Positions 19,936 to 42,657 of a DNA stretch of 64,000 nt are shown piece after piece; the stretch's first letter is position 1; each line of letters starts with the position of its first letter. The stretch comes from Aulosira sp. ZfuVER01. GTDB lineage: Bacteria > Cyanobacteriota > Cyanobacteriia > Cyanobacteriales > Nostocaceae. The notes under the pieces were generated by a model that saw only the letters and a list, made by a program, of their open reading frames with translations, was not told the origin of the DNA and did not search any database. Made by a program: the position numbers and the translations under genes. The stretch spans positions 64,001-128,000 of the forward strand of contig JAVRCV020000052.1 of assembly GCA_034530615.2 (NCBI GenBank). Direction: 5' to 3'.

Positions 19936-20601
19936 TTATCTTGAAGATGCTAACTTATCCGCAATGCGTGTAGTTTCTGGCAGCCGATATTTAGTTGTGC
20001 AACGCATTACGTAGTCAATTGCTGTCGGTAAACTAACTCGATGACCACTGGAGATATATAATGGCTTGACTCCTGTGCGCGTGCGTAAAACTGCGCCAAT
20101 TGTTTCTCCCTTATGTATTAGCGGTTGCCAGCTGCCTTTTGTTTCTGGTACTTCTTCATACTTACCAATTAGTAAGGATTTTGCCACTCCGATGGTGGGT
20201 AGATCTATAAGCAACCCTAAATGGCTAGCTATGCCAAGTCTTCGGGGATGGGCGATTCCTTGACCATCACACAGAATCAGGTTTGGCATGATTTTCACTT
20301 TTTCTAGCGCATCAAGTACAGCTGGGATTTCCCGAAATGACAGGAAGCCGGGAATATAAGGAAATGTCGTAGGACGGCGCGCTAGGGTAGTCTCAACGAC
20401 TTGCAAGTCAGGAAAACTCAGCACGGCGACGGCTGCACGACTAATCGTACCATCAACTTCAAAGCCCATATCTACCCCTGCAACGTATTGGACAGGTTCT
20501 GGGAATCGATCTTCTGTAATTATCCGATCGCGCAATTTTTCTTGGATGGCGATCGCTTCTTCTAAGTTATGCGGCCATGTATGTTCTTGATAAATCTTCA
20601 T
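19936..20601 (-). CDS. nfi: Endonuclease V
   Basis: AGVD, FPYIPGFLSFRE, DGQGIAHPRRLGIASH, RLPETTRIAD. Confidence 0.96.
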   Translation of the reverse strand: MKIYQEHTWPHNLEEAIAIQEKLRDRIITEDRFPEPVQYVAGVDMGFEVDGTISRAAVAVLSFPDLQVVETTLARRPTTFPYIPGFLSFREIPAVLDALEKVKIMPNLILCDGQGIAHPRRLGIASHLGLLIDLPTIGVAKSLLIGKYEEVPETKGSWQPLIHKGETIGAVLRTRTGVKPLYISSGHRVSLPTAIDYVMRCTTKYRLPETTRIADKLASSR

Positions 20602-20826
20602 ATTTAGGCTTGAACTTAATAAAATTCAAAGGTTTTAATGCCCGAAATCTCTATTAGCAATAGTGTATATATTGTTGCCAGGAATTTATTTTTTTGTAAT
20701 CTTTTGCTAAAGTTAGAGCGCTACAATTTTGGTTGATTACTTTGTCCTGGTAGCACATAAAATATTGCAAGATTGATGGTAGTTTATTTTTGCACAAACT
20801 CTTCGATCCCAATCGCAATACAAGCT

Positions 20827-21465
20827 ATGACACTCAATTTATATTTACTGCGACATGGAGAAACTACTTTTAGTCAAAGTGGTAATTTCTGCGGTGAAAC
20901 TGATGCAGAGTTGACCGCTGAAGGGATGCAGATGGCAGAGGGTTTTGCCGATGTTTATCAAAAATTGAAGTGGGAAGCGGTTTATGTTAGCCCGATGAAG
21001 CGCACAATTGCAACTGCCAAGCCATTTTGTGATGCTATCGGTATGGATATGCAGTTGCGTGACGGACTCCGAGAAGGTAGTTATGGCGAATGGGAAACTA
21101 AGAGTAAATCGTTTGCTCAAGAGAATTACCCCCAAAACTATGTAAAATGGATGACAGAACCTGCTTGGAATGCACCACTAGGTGGAGAGACTGCGGTAGA
21201 TATTGCTAACCGTTCCATGCCTGTAATTGCTGAAATTCAAGAAAAACATCCCCAAGGTAATGTTTTAGTAGTTTCCCATAAAGCCACAATTCGGATTATG
21301 CTTTGCAGTCTACTGGGAATTGATTTGGGACGCTATCGCTATCGGGTGAATATTTTGGTCGCGTCGGTAAGTATGGTTAAATTTGACGTTAATGGCCCTT
21401 TGTTAGAAATATTAGGCGATCGCCATCATATACCCGATCTTATTCGCTCTCGCCCGGGGACATAA
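20827..21465 (+). CDS. Histidine phosphatase family protein
   Basis: LLRHGET and VVSH motifs; ATG 20827 preferred. Confidence 0.92.
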   Translation: MTLNLYLLRHGETTFSQSGNFCGETDAELTAEGMQMAEGFADVYQKLKWEAVYVSPMKRTIATAKPFCDAIGMDMQLRDGLREGSYGEWETKSKSFAQENYPQNYVKWMTEPAWNAPLGGETAVDIANRSMPVIAEIQEKHPQGNVLVVSHKATIRIMLCSLLGIDLGRYRYRVNILVASVSMVKFDVNGPLLEILGDRHHIPDLIRSRPGT

Positions 21466-21681
21466 TAGTTGCTACTAATAGGCTTTCAAGACACTGTTGA
21501 CAGAATATCTGCGTTCGCTGCAACAAAATCTAGGCAGGAAATCTGAGGACTAGATAAAGCTCAGAGCGATCGCAAAAGTTTTCGGTCTAATGATAGGGGA
21601 AATAGGAAAAATTAGTGTTTGATGTTGCTAAATATCAGCAGTGGATGGTTGTTATGTAAACCATACATCCATTAACTTAGC

Positions 21682-22749
21682 TCATTTTAGAGATACATAA
21701 TTCGGTAATAAAGTATCTAACAAAGCATCAATACTATTATCATAGAGATCTGAAATATGTAAAACTCTTTCAGCTTTGTTAAAATAGCTCTTAATTGAGT
21801 GTTTATAGATGGGGTCGTAATAGGAATACAATAAATCCTGTACTAATGTTTCCCAATTACTAGCATCAATCAACTGATACCATTGACTTAATTTCTCCCA
21901 ACCGCAGCGATATTTAAGTTTCTCCAGTTTCTGTTTTAAAATATCAGGATGAGTTACTAGGTGATTATATTCTTGTAAGAGGAACTTAACTCTAGCCGCT
22001 GTTGGTAGTTGAATTTCTACACAATTAGCTTGCCTCATTTCATTCCAGAGAGACTGAGGCAAATAGACTTTCCCAATTTTGTTACTTTCTGATTCTATCC
22101 ATACTGGTTGATGCGGATCGAAACTTTGCAGCTTTTGTAATAGTAGAGTTTCAAAGTATTTTTGTGAGGGTTGATAGGCAAGTTTTCCTTGCAATTCTCC
22201 CCCCAACAGAGAACCGCGATGATTCGCTAAACTTTCCAAGTCTAAAACTTGAGCGTCACGCTGACCCATCTTATCTAAGATGTAAGTCTTACCACTACCA
22301 CTTAGACCGCACAATATCTGATAAGTAAATTTTGCGGGCAGATGTTCTAGTTGTTGGCGTACATAAGCACGATAAGTTTTGTATCCGCCATCAATAACAG
22401 TAACGCGCCAACCAATCTGTGTTAGCACCAAAGCCATGCTACCTGAACGCTGCCCACCCCGCCAGCAATAAATTAAAGGACGGTAGTCTTTATCTTTCGC
22501 TGCAAAATGTTGACTGAGATGCTGATAGATATTTCTAGATACTAAAGCAGCGCCAATTTTTTTGGCAGTGAAAGGGCAAACTTGTTTGTAAATTGTTCCT
22601 ACTTCAGCGCGTTCGGCATCATTCAAGACTGGTAAATTAATTGCACCAGGAATGTGGTCTTCTAAAAATTCGCTAGGTGAACGAACATCAATGATTTCAC
22701 TATAATTTTCAGTCCAGGGCTGCCGAGTATATTTAACTAAGGGTGACAT
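21682..22749 (-). CDS. mnmH: tRNA 2-selenouridine synthase
   Basis: Rhodanese IDVRSPSEF and YCWRGGQRS, P-loop GLSGSGKT, ANHRGS, ESESNKIG. Confidence 0.93.
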   Translation of the reverse strand: MSPLVKYTRQPWTENYSEIIDVRSPSEFLEDHIPGAINLPVLNDAERAEVGTIYKQVCPFTAKKIGAALVSRNIYQHLSQHFAAKDKDYRPLIYCWRGGQRSGSMALVLTQIGWRVTVIDGGYKTYRAYVRQQLEHLPAKFTYQILCGLSGSGKTYILDKMGQRDAQVLDLESLANHRGSLLGGELQGKLAYQPSQKYFETLLLQKLQSFDPHQPVWIESESNKIGKVYLPQSLWNEMRQANCVEIQLPTAARVKFLLQEYNHLVTHPDILKQKLEKLKYRCGWEKLSQWYQLIDASNWETLVQDLLYSYYDPIYKHSIKSYFNKAERVLHISDLYDNSIDALLDTLLPNYVSLK

Positions 22750-32801: not shown

Positions 32802-33461
32802 ATGTCTACAAAATTCCATACCCGCACGGAAGCTGGTAAGATGTTAGCCCGAGAACTGACAGCTTATACCGATTGCAAAGACTTGTTAGTTTTAGGTTTG
32901 CCTCGTGGTGGTGTACCCGTCGCGTATGAAGTGGCAAAGTTACTCGGTGCAACCTTAGATATTTGTTTAGTGCGAAAACTCGGTGTACCTGGTCATAAAG
33001 AATTGGCAATGGGTGCAATCACGTCGGGAGGCATTCGTGTCTTAAATTACGATGTTATCAGTTCCTTGGGTATCACCAATCAGACGATTAACCAAGTAAC
33101 GGCGGATGAATTGCAGGAATTACAGCGTCGCGATCGCGTTTATCGTGGCGATCGCCCTCCATTAGATGTAAAAAATCGCACTGTAATTGTTGTAGATGAC
33201 GGTATTGCTACTGGCTCAACTATGCGTGCTGCCATTACTATGTTGCAACAGCAACAGCCTAAGCGTATCGTTGTTGCAGTTCCCATCGCACCGCCAGAAA
33301 CTTGTGAAGAATTAAGTAATCAGGTAGACGAAGTAGTGTGTCTAAAAATGCCAGAGCGAATGTATGCAGTAGGTGTCTGGTATGAAGACTTTTCGCAAAC
33401 TACTGATGAAGAGGTGCGTTATCTGCTTGGCAAACAGTCAGCTGTTAGCAGTCACAGTTGA
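32802..33461 (+). CDS. Phosphoribosyltransferase family protein
   Basis: GGAGGT RBS; LPRGGVPVA and VVDDGIATGST PRPP-binding motif. Confidence 0.93.
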   Translation: MSTKFHTRTEAGKMLARELTAYTDCKDLLVLGLPRGGVPVAYEVAKLLGATLDICLVRKLGVPGHKELAMGAITSGGIRVLNYDVISSLGITNQTINQVTADELQELQRRDRVYRGDRPPLDVKNRTVIVVDDGIATGSTMRAAITMLQQQQPKRIVVAVPIAPPETCEELSNQVDEVVCLKMPERMYAVGVWYEDFSQTTDEEVRYLLGKQSAVSSHS

Positions 33462-33477
33462 GCATCCACAACGATCG

Positions 33478-34704
33478 CTACCTATTATCAGCAGCGCAGC
33501 GAAATCCTGTGAAAACCTGGCGCACGCTGGGATAATACCAGTTACGAAAACTTGGACGCAGTACCCAAGGACGAGTCGCCCAACTACCGCCTTTTAACAC
33601 GCGATGCTTTTGGTCAAAATAAACTTGCGAGTAACCTATATAAGGATAACTTTGAAACCCCTGATAGCCAGCAAACCAGGAAGCTGTCCACTCCCAGACA
33701 TTTCCTAGGGTGTCGTATAAACCATAAATACTTTGCCCGCCGGGATAAGCATCTACTGGTGTAGTTTTACCAATTAGGCGATCGCAATTACAATTCTCAA
33801 TTACTGCTTTTGCTTCTACATTCTGACTAGCCGCTTTTTCCCATTCGGCTTCTGTTGGTAGCCGCTTCCCGACAAACCTTGCGTATGCTTCAGCTTCGTA
33901 CCAACTAACACCACAAACTGGGTGATTATCCCAACTGAAATCATCTTGCCAATATAGCGGTTGTGTTACTTGCTCAGTTTGCAGCCAATTCCATCCAGCC
34001 TCTGACCAATAAGAAGAATCTTGATAACCACCTGCCTCCATAAATGCCCGATACTGCCTACAAGTAACTGGATATCTGTCAAGATAATAAGTATTTAAAT
34101 ATACTTTATATATGGGAGATTCATTATCTAGCGCATCAATAGAGTTACTACCCTGTGCAAATTCCCCGGCTGGGATTTCAATCATCTCTTCGAGATTGTC
34201 AGGTGCGGGTTGGTTTTCTCTGTCAGTGCGCAGTGACTTGTTATTCAATCGGGAAACTTTGACTAATTCCAACACCATGCTCATAATTTCGCAGTGTTGG
34301 CTTTCATGCTGAATTAAAAAGCGCCATAAACGTTCGTTTTGTTCAACATCAGCAACTTTCAGAGAATCTAGTACTTTGACTCTTACCGTATCCAAGTAAT
34401 AACGAATTTCCTCTAAATCGGGTAATTCCACACGCTTGGCTTTGGGTAAACCATCAGCCGCAAACAGCTGACGGTATTGAGGGAACAAACATGGTAAGCC
34501 TGCACTGCGTTCTAGTAGCCACAAAGATTCAGTGTAAGCAATATGTCCTAAGTGCCAGCCAACAGGACTAAAATCAGGATGCGGTTGAGCGCAAAAAGTC
34601 ATCCGATCCATACCCTCGAAGAGTGTCAGAGTTTTAGTCCGACATTCAACGAAAGCAAGAGTTATCGCCTCTCTCACACTAGATTTGCTCAAATTGGATA
34701 TCAC
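33478..34704 (-). CDS. egtB: Ergothioneine sulfoxide synthase (DinB + FGE-sulfatase domains)
   Basis: SPVGWHLGH, QHESQH iron ligands, RLPTEAEWEKAA, GNVWEW, GFRCA; GTG 34704 overlaps the egtC end. Confidence 0.88.
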   Translation of the reverse strand: MISNLSKSSVREAITLAFVECRTKTLTLFEGMDRMTFCAQPHPDFSPVGWHLGHIAYTESLWLLERSAGLPCLFPQYRQLFAADGLPKAKRVELPDLEEIRYYLDTVRVKVLDSLKVADVEQNERLWRFLIQHESQHCEIMSMVLELVKVSRLNNKSLRTDRENQPAPDNLEEMIEIPAGEFAQGSNSIDALDNESPIYKVYLNTYYLDRYPVTCRQYRAFMEAGGYQDSSYWSEAGWNWLQTEQVTQPLYWQDDFSWDNHPVCGVSWYEAEAYARFVGKRLPTEAEWEKAASQNVEAKAVIENCNCDRLIGKTTPVDAYPGGQSIYGLYDTLGNVWEWTASWFAGYQGFQSYPYIGYSQVYFDQKHRVLKGGSWATRPWVLRPSFRNWYYPSVRQVFTGFRCAADNR

Positions 34705-35467
34705 AGTCCACTCCCACACTGATGATGCTATTTTCTTGGACATCTGTCCAATTACCTGTAAATAGTGGTTCAGATGCAATAATTACTGCTCCGGGAAAAG
34801 TTGGATCGTCCCGCAACCAGTAAAGAGACGGAGCAGGCGATTTTGTACTAAAGCGACAAGCAATTAAGCGATCGCCATCACTAATTACCATATTGGCGGA
34901 AACATCAGCTTGATATTCTTCTGCCCATTCCCTCAACTGAAGTAATGTAATATGCAAAGCCTGCTCTACACTCTTACCAGGGTTAGCTTGTAAATGCTGG
35001 AGCAGTAAAGCAAAGATATGTTCCGAATCTGTACTTCCCTGAATGAATTGGTAAATTTCATCACTGAGTTGATTGCGAATCGGTCTGTATAGCGTCTGAC
35101 GGAACTTTTCAATCCGGCCATTGTGAGTAAACAACAAACGCTGATACTGAAATGGCTGAGAATTACTAAAATCTAAAGCTTGTCCTGGTGTAGCACTACG
35201 AACATAGGCTAATATTTGCCCCGATTCGACATAACGGCTGAGACTTGGCAGATTTTGGTCATTCCAAATCGGCAAGGTATTTTTGTAAATAAAGGGTTCG
35301 GTATCTTTTTGCGGATGATACCAACCCATACCAAAACCATCAGCGTTCACCACTCCCGAAAGCATTTCGCGAGGTTGATAACTCTGCACAATCAAGGAAT
35401 GTTCTGGTGTGTACAGTAGATGTTCTAAAGACACAGGTGAACCGAGGTAAGCAAGTAAACGGCACAT
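34679..35467 (-). CDS. egtC: Class II glutamine amidotransferase of ergothioneine pathway
   Basis: MCRLLAY N-terminal Cys, NADGFG, HNG, TDSE, IASEPL; adjacent to egtB. Confidence 0.9.
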   Translation of the reverse strand: MCRLLAYLGSPVSLEHLLYTPEHSLIVQSYQPREMLSGVVNADGFGMGWYHPQKDTEPFIYKNTLPIWNDQNLPSLSRYVESGQILAYVRSATPGQALDFSNSQPFQYQRLLFTHNGRIEKFRQTLYRPIRNQLSDEIYQFIQGSTDSEHIFALLLQHLQANPGKSVEQALHITLLQLREWAEEYQADVSANMVISDGDRLIACRFSTKSPAPSLYWLRDDPTFPGAVIIASEPLFTGNWTDVQENSIISVGVDCDIQFEQI

Positions 35468-35494
35468 AAATTAATTAGAATTTGGGATTGCTGA

Positions 35495-35989
35495 CTAGCT
35501 AGCAATAAACTTCAAAGCCACACCATTCATGCAATAGCGCTTACCAGTAGGTGCAGGGCCGTCGTTAAATACATGACCTAGGTGTCCACCACAACGATGA
35601 CAATGGACTTCAACTCTAGTCATAAAGAATGACTTGTCTACAGTTGTACCGATAGCTTCTTCCAGAGGTGCATAAAAACTCGGCCAGCCTGTACCACTGT
35701 TGAATTTAGTATCTGAAGAAAATAGAGGTAAATCGCATCCAGCACATACGTAAGTTCCCTGAGAATATTGCTTATCTAAAGGACTAGTACCAGCGCGTTC
35801 GGTGCCATGTTTACGCAGAACATGAAACTGTTCTGGTGTCAAGGTTTTGCGCCATTCTTCTTCAGTTTTGCTGATTTCAAATTCATTCTTTGCAGTTGCC
35901 ATAACTTCTGGTTTCCTTGTGAAATATTGTGATAAAAATGCTGTGCCAACTATGACTGCACTAGCTTCTAAAAGATACCGTCTGTTCAT
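35495..35989 (-). CDS. msrB: Peptide-methionine (R)-S-oxide reductase with N-terminal RR leader
   Basis: GTER, SGTGWPSF, HLGHVF, RYCMN. Confidence 0.96.
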   Translation of the reverse strand: MNRRYLLEASAVIVGTAFLSQYFTRKPEVMATAKNEFEISKTEEEWRKTLTPEQFHVLRKHGTERAGTSPLDKQYSQGTYVCAGCDLPLFSSDTKFNSGTGWPSFYAPLEEAIGTTVDKSFFMTRVEVHCHRCGGHLGHVFNDGPAPTGKRYCMNGVALKFIAS

Positions 35990-36070
35990 TATCTAGTTGC
36001 CATTTACCTTGCTGATTCGCCATTATGAGCGATCGCTCTGAATTAGCCGTGATAGCAAGATTAAAATCAT

Positions 36071-36508
36071 CTAAGAATCATTGAGATAGGTGCTATCAAC
36101 CGCTGATTGCAGGTCATCGGCTGCAAAATAGAATCGTTGAGCCGGAAAATAAATGCTGTTGTAGTCGCGGATAATTAATTCTGCTGGCAAATCCTCCTGG
36201 TTTCTGTTTAACGCTCTTTTTAAAGCTGTTACAAAACTACATTCACTCTAATAAATTATCGCTCCTGTAATCAAATCATTTGGGGTGGTGATTCCTGTAC
36301 CGCACTAGGTAGGGGTTTGGGTGAAGGGATTAGCAAACTGTCCGGTAAGTACGGTTGTCAGATTAATTGAGCGATTCTTCCTGAGGGGATGGGTCAGCAT
36401 TTGGAACAGATCGTCAAAGCAAATGGCAAGGAGTATATAGCTTGTTTGATGGGAGAGGTTAAAGATATATCGACCAATGATTTGGCAACCTGAATCGAGA
36501 GATTGCAT
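36071..36508 (-). pseudogene. Possible decayed ORF with two internal TAG stops
   Basis: One frame from ATG 36508 to TAG 36071, interrupted only at 36305 and 36248; no family recognised. Confidence 0.25.
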
Positions 36509-36624
36509 TATGTCGGTTGCTATGATACTGTTTATACCAACATCTGCACCTTAAAAATTTAATAAATACGTATTATTGACTGGTAGCCTAATGCTTAGTT
36601 TCCTCAAGCTATTTTGTTAAGAAA

Positions 36625-36823
36625 TGTAAACTGAGGGGGTTGTCCAAAAGCCCAAAGGCTGATTGTTTCGTAGGCCCCCTCAGGTGGCTTATTGTATAAG
36701 GGTTTGAGTTACTTGGAGAATGTAGTTATTCTCAATAACTGCCGTCTGTTGACAAGTAAAATCTACCCCCCTCAGTTTTACAGGTCTGTAAGCCTTATTT
36801 GGTAAGCTTTCTGTAAGAGTAGG
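36625..36823 (+). promoter_or_regulatory. CRISPR array 1 leader
   Basis: Non-coding, adjacent to the intact end of the array; CTGAGGGGG/CCCCCTCAG motifs and an AGTTATT-CTC-AATAACT palindrome. Confidence 0.75.
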
Positions 36824-37728
36824 GTTTTAAATCTCTTACCCCTCACGGGGATGGAAACTACACCTTGTCTAACAGCTGTTATACAACCCTCTTCTGTTTT
36901 AAATCTCTTACCCCTCACGGGGATGGAAACGTTAGAACTTCCCGGTAATGTATGAGCGTAACATGTTTTAAATCTCTTACCCCTCACGGGGATGGAAACT
37001 GTACTTCATACCACCAATGTATACCATATTACCAAGTGTAGCGTTTTAAATCTCTTACCCCTCACGGGGATGGAAACTGTCGCGGCTCTTCCTTCATACC
37101 CTCGCAATGCATCCAGTTTTAAATCTCTTACCCCTCACGGGGATGGAAACTGCTCAACCGTCACATCTTTGCCGAAGATAGCTCTGGCAAATGTTTTAAA
37201 TCTCTTACCCCTCACGGGGATGGAAACAGATAATCTTGTAGATAATCATTTTCGATTAAGAGAGGTTTTAAATCATTCAGAAAGACAGGCCTTACTCACG
37301 CCTATAAAAATGATAATCATTTTCGATTAAGAGAGGTTTTAAATCTCTTACCCCTCACGGGGATGGAAACGCTTGGTCTCAGGTCGAGGATTAGGCTTGG
37401 TGTGATGAGTTTTAAATCTCTTACCCCTCACGGGGATGGAAACGTTACTAGGAGCTTGCAAATAGGCTTCGGCAATTTGTTTTAAATCTCTTACCCCTCA
37501 CGGGGATGGAAACGTCTTACAAAACTTGAGTATCTTTGCTTGAAATCTAGTTTTAAATCTCTTACCCCTCACGGGGATGGAAACTTAAAGCTAAAGGAGA
37601 ATCAGAACCAGAGGCCAAGCTTCCAGTTTTAAATCTCTTACCCCTCACGGGGATGGAAACCTTCCGACACGACCAGGAATGGACGCGGGAACTGTTTTAA
37701 ATCTCTTACCCCTCACGGGGATGTAAAA
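36824..37728 (+). CRISPR. CRISPR array 1, 35-nt repeat GTTTTAAATCTCTTACCCCTCACGGGGATGGAAAC
   Basis: 12 repeats starting at 36824, 36896, 36965, 37043, 37116, 37193, 37336, 37409, 37479, 37550, 37626, 37694 (last ends GTAAAA, degenerate); spacers 33-43 nt; one anomalous 108-nt interval. Confidence 0.99.
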
Positions 37729-37743
37729 AGTTGAAAGTAGGTT

Positions 37744-37787
37744 GCGATCGCATTTGAAAAGTTGGCGTTGCATAAATGCGCGATCGC
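37744..37787. repeat. HIP1-N28-HIP1 hairpin element
   Basis: GCGATCGC at 37744 and 37780 with an inner GCATTT/AAATGC stem. Confidence 0.55.
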
Positions 37788-37838
37788 TCAATTATGTAAC
37801 CAAAGAATTATACTTTTTTGGTACATGAGGATTTTGAT

Positions 37839-38243
37839 ATGTCGCCCTGGACTAGTCTCATAACTGCTCTAACACTACTGCTGTACTTGGTCATCACCAT
37901 TAATGTTGGTCGAGCCAGAGCCAAATATAAAGTACTACCTCCCCAAATGACAGGAGATCCTGACTTTGAACGAGTGCTGCGCGTTCAGCAAAATACCCTA
38001 GAGCAAATAATTTTCTTCCTACCTGCTTTATGGTTATTTTCTTTTTACGTCAACCCGTTGTGGGGGGCGTTTATTGGTGCTATCTGGCTGCTGGGAAGAA
38101 TCGCCTACGCTTGGGGATATTATCAAGCGGCGGAAAAGCGGGCAGTTGGCTTTGGTATTAGTTCTATTAGCGGTATAGTGCTACTTTTAGGTTCTCTCGT
38201 TGGGATCATCTTGTCTCTGGTGCAGCCATTAAGTCATGCTTAG
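37839..38243 (+). CDS. MAPEG family protein
   Basis: VGRARAKY, FERVLRVQQNTLE, GRIAYAWGY; GAGGA RBS. Confidence 0.93.
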   Translation: MSPWTSLITALTLLLYLVITINVGRARAKYKVLPPQMTGDPDFERVLRVQQNTLEQIIFFLPALWLFSFYVNPLWGAFIGAIWLLGRIAYAWGYYQAAEKRAVGFGISSISGIVLLLGSLVGIILSLVQPLSHA

Positions 38244-38376
38244 AAGCGATCGCTATTGTTATACCAATTCCCGAAAATCCTGATACAGATAGATTGTTCG
38301 TGAATTGCTATCAGCAGATGCTCCTCTAAATATTCAACTTTGCGTTGGGGCATCTCGTCTAGTCTCAATAAAGCTC

Positions 38377-38477
38377 ATACCATTTTGGATTTTGGATTTT
38401 AGATTTTGGATTGTAAAAGATTGATTGACCAAGCTTTTGGGCGCTCCATCTGTCGCAATCATTTTTCAAATTGGTAT
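38377..38477. mobile_element. Small MITE-like element (ATACCA...TGGTAT ends) containing (TTTTGGA)n STRR
   Basis: Right end 38447-38477 is 28/31 identical (inverted) to 41932-41962; another degenerate end at 38261. Confidence 0.6.
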
Positions 38478-38523
38478 CAGTTAATCTCCGACGGGATACT
38501 GGGAGCCACGAACAAGCCCACAC

Positions 38524-39681
38524 TCACTGCTTGCGGGAGTGTGGGAGTATCTCACGAATCGACCCTTCAATCCCCTCAACATACCAATCCATTTCTAGTT
38601 GTGCTTTATTATCCAGTATTTTACCCTTGGGTACTCGGACTACTCCCTTTTGGTCTTTTACTGGGCCATCGAAAGGATTGGCAGTACCTTGAATAAACTG
38701 TTCTCGTTTGGTGTTGACTAATTGCTGAACATCGCTAGGAATCACTGGATTCATCGGGGAAATATCTACCATCCCTTGAGCAATACCATGCCAAACAGCT
38801 TGTGACTTCCATGTGTTGTTAATAACAGCCAAAGCTGTATCTATATAAAATTTTCCCCATTTATTAATTGCTGATGTCAGGTGTGCTTGGGCACCAAACC
38901 TACTCATATCGGTATTGTAGCCGAAAGCATAAATACCTTTTTCTGCTGCCAGTTGAATAGCCGCCGCAGAGTTAGTATGTTGGGTTAGCACATCTGCACC
39001 TAAATTAATCAAAGCTTGGGCGGCTTCCCTTTCTTTGGCAGGATCGTACCAATTTTTTACCCACATCACCCTAACTTTGGCCTGAGGATTTGTTGTCCGC
39101 AGTCCTTGAGTAAATGCGTTGATACCGCGAATTACTTCTGGGATGGGATGTGATCCAATAAAACCAATGACATTAGATTTGGTCATCTTGCCTGCAATTA
39201 TGCCGGTTAAATAGTGCGGTTCTTCAAAGCGTCCTGAATAAGTACCGACATTGGCAGCAAGTGTGTATCCTGTACAATTTTCAAAAAAAACATTAGGAAA
39301 ATCTTTGGCAACTTTAATTGTGGGGTTTATGTAGTCAAAGGCAGTAGTAAAAATTAATTTATTCCCGTCTAATGCTAGTTGCCGAATCACCCTCTCAGCA
39401 TCAACACCTGCATTAACATTTTCCACAAAGGTAGTTTTTACCTTATCTTGGAGATTCGCTTCCATTTCTCTGCGACCTAAATCATGAGAGTAAGTCCAGC
39501 CAAAATCACCGACAGGCCCCGCATACACAAACCCCACTTTTAGCGGTTCGTTGACTACTACAGGGGAAGCTGTTGGCACTACTTCGCTTTGAGATTTGGG
39601 ATTTTTACCTTGAATACAACTATTCAAGGCAAAGCTAGATCCTGCTAAAGTCGCATACTTGAGAAAATTCCGACGATCCAT
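38524..39681 (-). CDS. BMP family ABC substrate-binding lipoprotein with Tat signal
   Basis: MDRRNFLK, lipobox-like LNSC, KVGFVYAGPVGDFGW, GADVLTQH. Confidence 0.92.
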   Translation of the reverse strand: MDRRNFLKYATLAGSSFALNSCIQGKNPKSQSEVVPTASPVVVNEPLKVGFVYAGPVGDFGWTYSHDLGRREMEANLQDKVKTTFVENVNAGVDAERVIRQLALDGNKLIFTTAFDYINPTIKVAKDFPNVFFENCTGYTLAANVGTYSGRFEEPHYLTGIIAGKMTKSNVIGFIGSHPIPEVIRGINAFTQGLRTTNPQAKVRVMWVKNWYDPAKEREAAQALINLGADVLTQHTNSAAAIQLAAEKGIYAFGYNTDMSRFGAQAHLTSAINKWGKFYIDTALAVINNTWKSQAVWHGIAQGMVDISPMNPVIPSDVQQLVNTKREQFIQGTANPFDGPVKDQKGVVRVPKGKILDNKAQLEMDWYVEGIEGSIREILPHSRKQ

Positions 39682-39955
39682 TGTTAAGCGATTTAAAATT
39701 CAACAACAGTCAAGAGGTATTTGATTACTGATAACGGTAGACTTAGCCTAGTACCGCTTTGCGGAATTTAATGATTTACTGATAATAGCAATTCTCTACT
39801 AGAGTAAGCGATCGCATCTTCATCTCTTAACTCTGAAGAATGGCTCTCTGCGCCGGAATTTCTAAAGAAAATCTAATGTAGCAAATTGTGCCAGCTACAA
39901 AACCGGATAATGCATTAGGATTTGTCAAACTATCAACCTTAAAGCATTTATACCT

Positions 39956-40534
39956 ATGACATATACACCGAAAATTCTGGCCTTTGCTGGCAGTACTCGC
40001 GTAGATTCTTACAACAAAAAATTGGCTAAAATTGCCGCGAATGGTGCTAGGTCAGCAGGTGCGGAAGTCACTTATTTAGATCTGCGCGATTTACCCATGC
40101 CTCTTTTCGATGAGGATCTCGAAAAGCAACAAGGACAACCTGAAAACGCAGGTAAATTTAAAGAATTGTTACTTTCGCATCAAGGGTTCTTGATTGCTTC
40201 GCCTGAATATAACAGTTCAATTTCCGCAGTTTTGAAAAATGCGATCGATTGGGCATCTCGTCCCGCGCCAAACGAACCGCCTCTAGCAGCTTTTACAGGC
40301 AAAGTGGCTGCGCTGATGAGTGCTTCCCCTGGCGCACTAGGTGGTTTGCGGGGATTGGTTCATCTGCGCAGTATTTTAGGAAACATCAGAGTTTTAGTGC
40401 TTCCCGATCAAATAGCTGTCTCCAAAGCTTACGAAGCTTTCAATGCTGACGATTCATTAAAAGATGAAAAGCAACAGCAATCTATTGAAAAACTGGGTGA
40501 AAGTTTAGCCACAATTTTAGCAAAGCTTAACTAA
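39956..40534 (+). CDS. NADPH-dependent FMN reductase
   Basis: GSTRVDSYN and SPEYNSSISAVLKNAIDW motifs. Confidence 0.95.
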   Translation: MTYTPKILAFAGSTRVDSYNKKLAKIAANGARSAGAEVTYLDLRDLPMPLFDEDLEKQQGQPENAGKFKELLLSHQGFLIASPEYNSSISAVLKNAIDWASRPAPNEPPLAAFTGKVAALMSASPGALGGLRGLVHLRSILGNIRVLVLPDQIAVSKAYEAFNADDSLKDEKQQQSIEKLGESLATILAKLN

Positions 40535-42040: not shown

Positions 42041-42657
42041 CTTTCAATCCCCTTGCGGGGTAATAGTTAGTGGAAACCTAAATTTATATAAATTAAGTCT
42101 AAATCTTCGTTTCAATCCCCTTGCGGGGTAATAGTTAGTGGAAACTCACTAATATCTATTGCCATACGTTTTAAATATGTCCAGTTTCAATCCCCTTGCG
42201 GGGTAATAGTTAGTGGAAACAACTCTTTCTTAGTTTATGTAGTTTCTAATCACAGAAGTTTCAATCCCCTTGCGGGGTAATAGTTAGTGGAAACTTTCCA
42301 GGGTGGAAGCCCACAAACCCTAGAAGGGAGTTTCAATCCCCTTGCGGGGTAATAGTTAGTGGAAACTGCACTAGCAGCAGTGAACCCAGATGCTTTAAGT
42401 TTCAATCCCCTTGCGGGGTAATAGTTAGTGGAAACTTGGTTGGGTCTCCACCCAGAGCCAATTGATTCTAGGAGTTTCAATCCCCTTGCGGGGTAATAGT
42501 TAGTGGAAACTGCCACCGAAGTAGCGAAGTAAAGGAGGATTCACTAGTTTCAATCCCCTTGCGGGGTAATAGTTAGTGGAAACCGCTGCTTATCGTCAGC
42601 TAAACCTACAGATTGCAAACGTTTCAATCCCCTTGCGGGGTAATAGTTAGTGGAAAC
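42041..42657 (-). CRISPR. CRISPR array 2, 37-nt repeat GTTTCCACTAACTATTACCCCGCAAGGGGATTGAAAC (minus-strand reading)
   Basis: 9 repeats starting at 42041, 42109, 42184, 42258, 42330, 42399, 42474, 42547, 42621; 8 spacers of 31-38 nt; the 42041 copy is mutated (trailer) and a leader lies on the right. Confidence 0.99.

Follow-up and report, generated by a model that had tools for sequence, protein, structure and literature searches.

A spacer antisense to RT-cas1 genes in an orphan CRISPR array of the cyanobacterium Aulosira sp. ZfuVER01

Spacer 4 of array 1 and the genes it matches

The stretch of DNA analysed here (the window, 64,000 nucleotides (nt) from the genome of Aulosira sp. ZfuVER01) contains a CRISPR array, referred to as array 1, whose fourth spacer matches, in antisense, genes encoding fusions of a reverse transcriptase with Cas1 (RT-cas1). 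The array is built from a 35-nt repeat, GTTTTAAATCTCTTACCCCTCACGGGGATGGAAAC, with the direct-repeat spacing of a CRISPR array, namely ten spacers of 33–43 nt and one composite segment of 108 nt. The Rfam family CRISPR-DR37 (RF01347) matches all twelve repeats at 51.8 bits (42.6 for the last copy; gathering score 40), and the twelfth, terminal repeat is degenerate (..GATGTAAAA). A Pfam search of the 22 open reading frames of window 20–50 kb, which are housekeeping genes, detected no Cas family beside the array, and array 1 is thus an orphan. The array and the spacer in question are:

36824..37728, + strand: CRISPR array 1, 12 repeats of 35 nt with 11 inter-repeat segments
37078..37115, + strand: spacer 4, 38 nt, fourth from the leader side, its reverse complement corresponding to Cas1-domain codons of RT-cas1

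The reverse complement of spacer 4 translates in frame 3 to DALRGYEGRAAT. An earlier note on this DNA had given the spacer these coordinates and this translation, both correctly, and had read the spacer as apparently antisense to cas1 over its catalytic motif; the conserved block concerned is LRGYEG..AAT. A codon-degenerate scan for D-x-L-R-G-Y-E-G-x-A-A-T, with one genome for each of 185,579 species, returned 64 loci, of which 63 have cyanobacterial titles and one lies on a contig binned as Acetobacteraceae. A Cas1-domain hit was present in all 64 and an RT domain also in 55, and none of these loci is a spacer of another array. The highest matches, all in frame with RT-cas1, were found in Fischerella muscicola PCC 7414 (locus L059) and F. 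thermalis PCC 7521 (L013), with 37 of 38 nt each, followed by Nostoc sp. CreGUA01 (L048, 36/38) and Nostoc sp. DedQUE02 (L024, 35/38), while the remaining 60 loci match at 27–32 positions. The differences from these four best loci are all synonymous or R/K exchanges. Additionally, complete genomes of the host's family contain matches of 36/38 (relative G429) and 35/38 (G425), and a metagenome scan, with a pattern that allowed three variable sites, returned one contig (L084) with a match of 37/38 that is 99.8% identical to the F. thermalis locus.

The claim had originally rested on a resemblance of 12 residues alone, which would leave room for a chance likeness to a short protein motif. This explanation was tried and ruled out, and its probability is negligible, as the matches of 35–37 nt are in frame in five independent records, and a 38-mer with at most one mismatch has a chance expectation of about 2e-9 in 596 Gb, both strands (authors' arithmetic). 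The best matches might also have fallen in a gene other than cas1 or in another frame; they proved to be cas1 genes read in the same frame, so that the antisense relationship is borne out at the nucleotide level. The link to RT-Cas1 made in the same note likewise holds, since the match lies in the Cas1 part of an RT-Cas1 fusion, and both the leader and the repeat of array 1 are of the RT-cas1 type.

In the RT-Cas1 encoded on contig C22 of the host genome, the motif corresponds to residues 491–502, within a Pfam Cas_Cas1 match at 338–627. The glutamate of the motif is presumably the metal-binding catalytic residue known from E. coli Cas1. This residue is not named in the accessible portion of Wang et al. 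2021 (PMC8102632), and the PDB contains Cas1 relatives.

The host genome comprises 8.03 Mb in 83 contigs, is 99.99% complete and contains four cas1 genes. No second copy of spacer 4 was found in it at up to three mismatches. The resident RT-cas1 on contig C22 matches at 30 of 38 positions, with motif and frame unchanged (DMLRGYEGKAAT), and the other three cas1 genes match at 24, 20 and 19 of 38 in an ungapped comparison. With eight mismatches, the C22 gene was ruled out as the source of the spacer. Strict self-targeting of the host, which had also been suggested, does not apply because the genome has no near-perfect site: copies at up to three mismatches are absent, the C22 site differs at eight positions and the cognate gene, as described below, is deleted. 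Similarly, of the 106 spacers that the genome contains in arrays of this repeat family, not one matches a second genomic site over nearly its full length.

The lost RT-cas1 gene, the predicted guide and the resident type III locus

The best-matching genes encode RT-Cas1 fusions of 672 residues, each followed by a leader and an array. Compared with the repeat of array 1, the repeat at L024 shows no difference, those at L048 and G425 show one, that at L059 two, and those of other loci three to eight. Loci with more distant repeats match spacer 4 less well (Spearman −0.65 across the 22 loci that have arrays, a descriptive value only, the loci being kin). The neighbourhood of array 1 seems to preserve part of the same arrangement:

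36495..36823, + strand: leader of array 1, homologous, at 84–86% identity, to the leaders 3' of intact RT-cas1 genes in relatives
36430..36494, + strand: remnant of about 65 nt of the RT-cas1 3' end, 86–91% identical over 66–71 nt to L024, L059 and L048
35990..36429, no strand: stretch between msrB and the remnant, upstream flank of the junction formed by deletion or rearrangement
35495..35989, − strand: upstream neighbour msrB, methionine sulfoxide reductase B (SelR domain; PF01641, E 9.7e-50)
37818..38243, + strand: downstream neighbour, a MAPEG-family membrane protein gene (PF01124, E 2.1e-25)

Window 36430–36858 aligns with L048, L024 and L059 at 85–86% identity over 429–439 nt, a region which in these loci consists of the last ~62 nt of RT-cas1, the leader and repeat 1. 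Window 36430–36494 is therefore what remains of an RT-cas1 gene, and array 1 has its leader and repeat in common with arrays that lie directly 3' of RT-cas1. The remnant encodes ..EYVACLMGEVKxYRPMIW.P, with a 1-nt insertion and with the stop codon changed to GAA.

Upstream of 36430 this homology ends. The stretch 35990–36429 gave only chance-level matches to RT-cas1 loci, and leader homology in 60 further family genomes starts without exception at window 36430 or later; beyond ~36081, the upstream stretch has no match in a genome of the same genus. A tblastn search of window 33000–40000 with the RT-Cas1 proteins of L024, L048, L059 and the host's C22 found nothing besides the remnant. Genome-wide, the same type of search found only the intact C22 RT-cas1 and three unrelated cas1 genes, and no other fragment of the RT-cas1 lineage of array 1 was present in the 99.99%-complete assembly. 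As the remnant is the only fragment in the genome, array 1 appears to have lost its own RT-cas1, including the site matched by spacer 4. The cognate gene is thus absent apart from ~65 nt, and the resident RT-cas1 belongs to a different lineage.

Contigs of four DNA sequencing runs were also searched. Those of three runs, from one study and possibly the source of the assembly, carry 35500 to ~36850 with 0–1 differences, span the junction at 36430 and end within array 1. No alternative allele with an intact RT-cas1 was found in the contigs of the four runs, in which uncovered parts do not count as evidence. Taken with the matches described above, spacer 4 is almost certainly an anti-RT-cas1 spacer directed at the array's own gene lineage, whose cognate gene is gone and for which the genome holds no perfect target. 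An immune memory in an array without cas genes would in this case point at the type of gene that encodes its own recording enzyme.

Seven relatives with this repeat type allow the fate of the gene to be compared. RT-cas1 is intact in four of them (L024, L048, L059 and G425), G429 (L087, G429:C1) has a 341-residue Cas1-only gene without the RT part, G333 (L073, G333:C56:559-1290) has a 68-residue Cas1 fragment fused to the leader, and G371 (L086, G371:C99), which belongs to the same genus as the host, has an orphan array without any RT-cas1 remnant. This last array has no spacer in common with array 1. As a separate observation, RT-cas1 is interrupted in the near-identical loci L013 and L084, where similarity ends 195 nt past the start of the protospacer region and the frame is broken.

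With regard to the direction of transcription, RT-cas1, leader and array follow each other in that order in intact relatives, array 1 has its degenerate terminal repeat distal to the leader, and exactly 8 nt, ATGGAAAC, remain after the hairpin CCCC-TCAC-GGGG of the repeat. These features support transcription of array 1 on the + strand, as do the 8-nt tags at the 5' end of CRISPR RNAs (crRNAs) that are documented for Anabaena 7120 in the available text of 10.1101/2020.04.14.041012. The corresponding feature of array 1 is:

37070..37077, + strand: predicted 5' tag of crRNA 4, ATGGAAAC, the last 8 nt of the upstream repeat

In this orientation, crRNA 4 is predicted to start with AUGGAAAC and to continue into the spacer, and it would pair with RT-cas1 mRNA. 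The pairing with the mRNA of the Fischerella gene would have one mismatch, at spacer position 7. The coding-strand flank after the protospacer is GTTTATTT, the first four bases of which pair with the 3' AAAC of the tag. This pairing between tag and flanking GUUU covers positions −1 to −4 in L059, L048 and L024, and −2 to −4 in the C22 gene. A GTTT flank follows only 16–18 of the 1973 possible antisense protospacers in the gene (0.8–0.9%), and NTTT follows 4.2–4.7%. In type III-A systems, pairing between the tag and the flank of the target marks the target as 'self' and blocks the activation of Cas10, while RNA cutting by the backbone continues.

The host has a locus that could make use of such a guide. 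Contig C22 carries a type III locus with Cas6, three RAMP proteins, Csm4, Csm2, Cas10, Csx3 and a WYL protein, together with Cas1-Cas2, RT-Cas1 and three arrays, and a further array lies on contig C73. The repeats of C22 and C73 have their 3' 20 nt, CCCCTCACGGGGATGGAAAC, in common with the repeat of array 1. The C22 RT-Cas1 is 85% identical in amino acids to that of L024, and the C22 leader is ~70% identical to the leader of array 1. The C22 Cas10 (20335-22668) contains the GGDD cyclase motif and no HD dipeptide anywhere, and the Csx3 gene adjoins it; on these grounds, the C22 system probably works via cyclic oligoadenylate signalling and not via DNA cutting. Furthermore, in having a Cas10 without HD and an RT-cas1 between arrays, the locus appears to resemble the III-D system of Anabaena 7120. 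Directly after the RT-cas1 array, at C22:37281-41090 (L007:2281-6090), lies a gene for a 1269-residue protein that has many TPR repeats and, at its C-terminus, a CHAT protease domain, and which may be a CRISPR-linked protease effector.

The presence of this Cas6/Csm locus bears on a possible present-day role of the guide. Whatever its origin, crRNA 4 could bind the C22 RT-cas1 mRNA despite the mismatches and lower its level by backbone cleavage without triggering Cas10, which would amount to feedback on the spacer-writing enzyme. The pairing would comprise 30 Watson-Crick and three G:U pairs (33 of 38 positions), with the tag paired at −2 to −4. Type III systems tolerate several mismatches, and their RNA cutting is independent of the flank. 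The true mismatches fall at spacer positions 7, 11, 22, 30 and 33, two of them within the tag-proximal third, and none of the 239 spacers from the fetched loci of relatives matches RT-cas1, including those in arrays beside the four intact genes (L024, L048, L059 and G425), which speaks against such a role. Cross-regulation of this kind therefore seems quite improbable. The proposal of feedback control had been raised in the earlier note; as an evolved design it finds no support, because none of the 344 other spacers compared (105 from this genome and the 239 from relatives) matches RT-cas1. A related reading, which also appears unlikely, is that of a tolerated self-guide: the pairing of GUUU with the tag would allow RT-cas1 mRNA to be bound and cut without Cas10 firing, in a negative feedback that, after loss of the cognate gene, would still reach the C22 paralogue.

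Origin of spacer 4

The favoured reading, which is given roughly an even chance, is that the array's own RT-Cas1 lineage was sampled, that the spacer was tolerated or the gene lost, and that array 1, orphaned, today depends on genes acting in trans. An RT-cas1 would once have stood directly upstream of array 1, and its product, together with Cas2, would have captured a piece of its own transcript or gene. The spacer may have survived since the 3' flank of its target, GUUU, pairs with the AAAC of the crRNA tag and would be read as 'self'; alternatively or additionally, cells without the target gene may have been favoured. The body of RT-cas1 would later have been deleted, with ~65 nt left, and today the transcripts of array 1 may be processed and used by the Cas6 and type III (Csm-like, Cas10 without HD) locus of C22. 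The order of events is inferred throughout; the observations behind it are the spacer with its match, the repeat and leader held in common with RT-cas1 loci, the remnant, the missing gene and the compatible effector locus.

The degree of divergence is in line with self-sampling by the array's own lineage. Intact members of the clade have protospacers that differ by 1–5 nt at 81–90% leader identity, and spacer 4 differs from intact members by 1–3 nt at 79–85% leader identity, which is the divergence expected if it had been copied from the lost cognate gene. A tag-like flank is in keeping with a self-tolerance filter and would handicap a spacer directed at an invader. The review by Wimmer and Beisel 2020 (PMC6990116), as far as its available text goes, reports that RT-Cas1 takes spacers from host RNA, and that ~90% of the escapers from self-targeting by the S. 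aureus type III-A system had deletions of the target.

Several observations weigh against self-sampling. The argument from the flank is weak, being post hoc, made on one spacer and dependent on a rule from type III-A work. No source matching spacer 4 at 38/38 was found in any genome, virus, plasmid, phage or metagenome search: 400 other genomes of the same order contain no copy at up to three mismatches, and no match was obtained in IMG/VR (exact and codon-degenerate) or in PLSDB plasmids and phage records (blastn, E<=1), nor did the whole of array 1 match phages. Synteny with the same-genus genome, where msrB, MAPEG and Bmp lie on three different contigs, is not kept, so that a deletion of RT-cas1 in situ is unproven. 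In three of the seven relatives RT-cas1 is decayed or absent, and the retrieved parts of their arrays contain no anti-cas spacer; decay of the gene is therefore common without such a spacer, and its loss needs no spacer-driven cause. Spacer 4 is also the only spacer among 345 to match RT-cas1. On its leader side, spacer 4 is followed by three younger spacers, and either adaptation continued after the capture of spacer 4 or they were added in trans. Finally, with respect to the orientation on which the pairing depends, the CRISPR-DR37 matches to array 1 all lie on the − strand, a call that opposes the + orientation, and promoter-like sites numbered 4 where 3.9 were expected from shuffles, so that no promoter stood out. 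The strands of Rfam direct repeats are regarded here as arbitrary. A scan of the locus for terminators returned none.

The main alternative, less probable than self-sampling, is a foreign origin, in which spacer 4 was taken from an incoming sibling RT-CRISPR module, be it a plasmid, an integrative element, or DNA or RNA of another strain, and then guards against that module as a type III counterpart of the anti-cas arrays of E. coli. The capture could have taken place before the array lost its RT-cas1 or after it, in the latter case via the C22 adaptation genes in trans; the host RT-Cas1 and Cas1-Cas2, whose repeats are identical to that of array 1 in the 3' 20 nt, could load the array. Arrays with related repeats were observed on three Nostoc plasmids (NZ_CP091914.1, NZ_CP054694.1 and NZ_CP023280.1), one of them predicted to be conjugative, and this CRISPR family is thus also plasmid-borne. 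One of the 64 motif loci lies on an Anabaena plasmid, although it matches spacer 4 at only 28 of 38 positions. Near-identical targets in different genera, Fischerella and Nostoc, imply horizontal spread, and a precedent exists in the spacers of E. coli CRISPR3 that correspond to cas1, cas3 and csy2 of the cognate I-F system (PMC2886076, in its available part).

The earlier note had likewise suggested a rival system on a plasmid or phage as the target. Such a target is possible in principle, but the plasmid, phage and viral-contig searches listed above gave no match, which counts against a foreign origin. Pairing of the flank with the tag at −1 to −4, a flank present at only ~0.9% of sites, should blunt immunity under the type III rule on tag and flank. 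Moreover, the orphan array of the same genus (G371) lacks such a spacer, and nothing therefore suggests that spacer 4 is retained by selection.

An anti-cas spacer in an orphan array is a known kind of element, to which spacer 4 adds a single, non-recurrent case that is linked to type III and RT. Almendros et al. reportedly described anti-cas spacers in cas-less I-F arrays of E. coli in 2016. According to the available text of Touchon and Rocha 2010 (PMC2886076), spacers of the cas-less I-F array CRISPR3 of E. coli match the cognate cas1, cas3 and csy2 in strains without those genes. Like the E. coli I-F arrays CRISPR3 and CRISPR4, its nearest known counterparts, array 1 is an orphan with a spacer against a missing cognate cas gene; the match is to a cas gene of the cognate system, at 35–37/38 with 0–2 changes between repeats. 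Unlike them, array 1 is of type III and RT-linked, and its guide would target RNA. It has a single such spacer, aimed at an adaptation gene alone, the effector genes usable by its guide are still in the genome, and a remnant of the lost gene still adjoins its leader. The E. coli spacers, as far as the accessible part of that study describes them, are kept across strains, whereas the sister genome lacks spacer 4.

Self-targeting spacers after which the target or cas genes were lost have been described by Stern et al. 2010 and by Guan et al. 2017, both summarised in Wimmer and Beisel 2020 (PMC6990116), whose available text also lists extended pairing with the repeat among the causes of self-targeting tolerance. 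As in the cases summarised there, a gene of host type is matched, the target is deleted and the array is kept. The present case differs in that the target is the system's own spacer-writing gene, that the best remaining match is 30/38 and that the order of events is inferred.

With regard to acquisition from RNA, RT-Cas1 has been reported to take spacers from host RNA by Silas et al. 2016 and Schmidt et al. 2018 (both via the accessible part of PMC6990116) and by Silas et al. 2017 (PMC5513706, likewise in part). Array 1 is of the RT-cas1 type, and spacer 4 comes from inside a transcribed gene, a position that fits capture from RNA and from DNA alike. Unlike spacer 4, the spacers in the available portions of those studies came from overexpression or were natural spacers that were unmapped. 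The accessible parts of the literature searched, including PMC5513706 and PMC6990116, supplements aside, describe no naturally occurring spacer that targets RT-cas1 itself.

A further comparison is with Anabaena sp. PCC 7120, in which, by the available text of Reimann et al. 2020 (10.1101/2020.04.14.041012), III-D arrays are split by the RT-Cas1 gene, and orphan arrays are expressed and cut by a remote Cas6, which yields 8-nt tags. The C22 arrays, in the same broad host group, are also split by the RT-Cas1 gene. In contrast to array 1, no anti-cas spacer is described for Anabaena 7120 in that text.

Spacer 4 can be seen as a trace, natural and datable, of a CRISPR system that recorded the enzyme with which it records. 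It joins three things that are seldom seen together: sampling of cellular RNA by RT-Cas1, self-targeting that is tolerated or escaped, and the orphaning of arrays, which is frequent in filamentous cyanobacteria. If the spacer is of self-origin, RT-linked adaptation writes self-spacers in nature, and those that survive the filter are the ones with a repeat-like flank or a lost target. If it is of foreign origin, 'anti-cas' arrays extend from type I-F in E. coli to RNA-targeting type III. With either origin, the native flank and a mutated one would offer a simple test bed for tag/anti-tag discrimination in III-D-like systems of cyanobacteria.

Other features of the locus

Array 1 contains one composite segment:

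37228..37335, + strand: composite 'spacer 6', 108 nt

The segment begins with a 37-nt spacer, which is followed by a 10-nt repeat stub (GTTTTAAATC), then by 37 nt of different sequence and finally by a 24-nt duplicate. The duplicate is an exact copy of the end of the segment's 37-nt spacer, and window 37241–37274 is identical to 37312–37345. The composite is the scar of an internal rearrangement of the array.

Immediately 3' of the terminal repeat, at window 37740–37790, lie two GCGATCGC palindromes, which resemble the highly iterated palindrome typical of cyanobacteria. On the 3' side of the MAPEG gene, the stretch at window ~38257–38489 has many copies in the genomes of three relatives, at 75–100% identity; it includes a simple repeat of the tttgga type and probably represents a small repeat element dispersed in the genomes of these cyanobacteria. 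At window 42109–42583 there is another CRISPR array, which has a 37-nt repeat of different sequence (GTTTCAATCCCCTTGCGGGGTAATAGTTAGTGGAAAC) and likewise no nearby cas genes; it lies between a formamidase-family gene and a phytochrome kinase gene.

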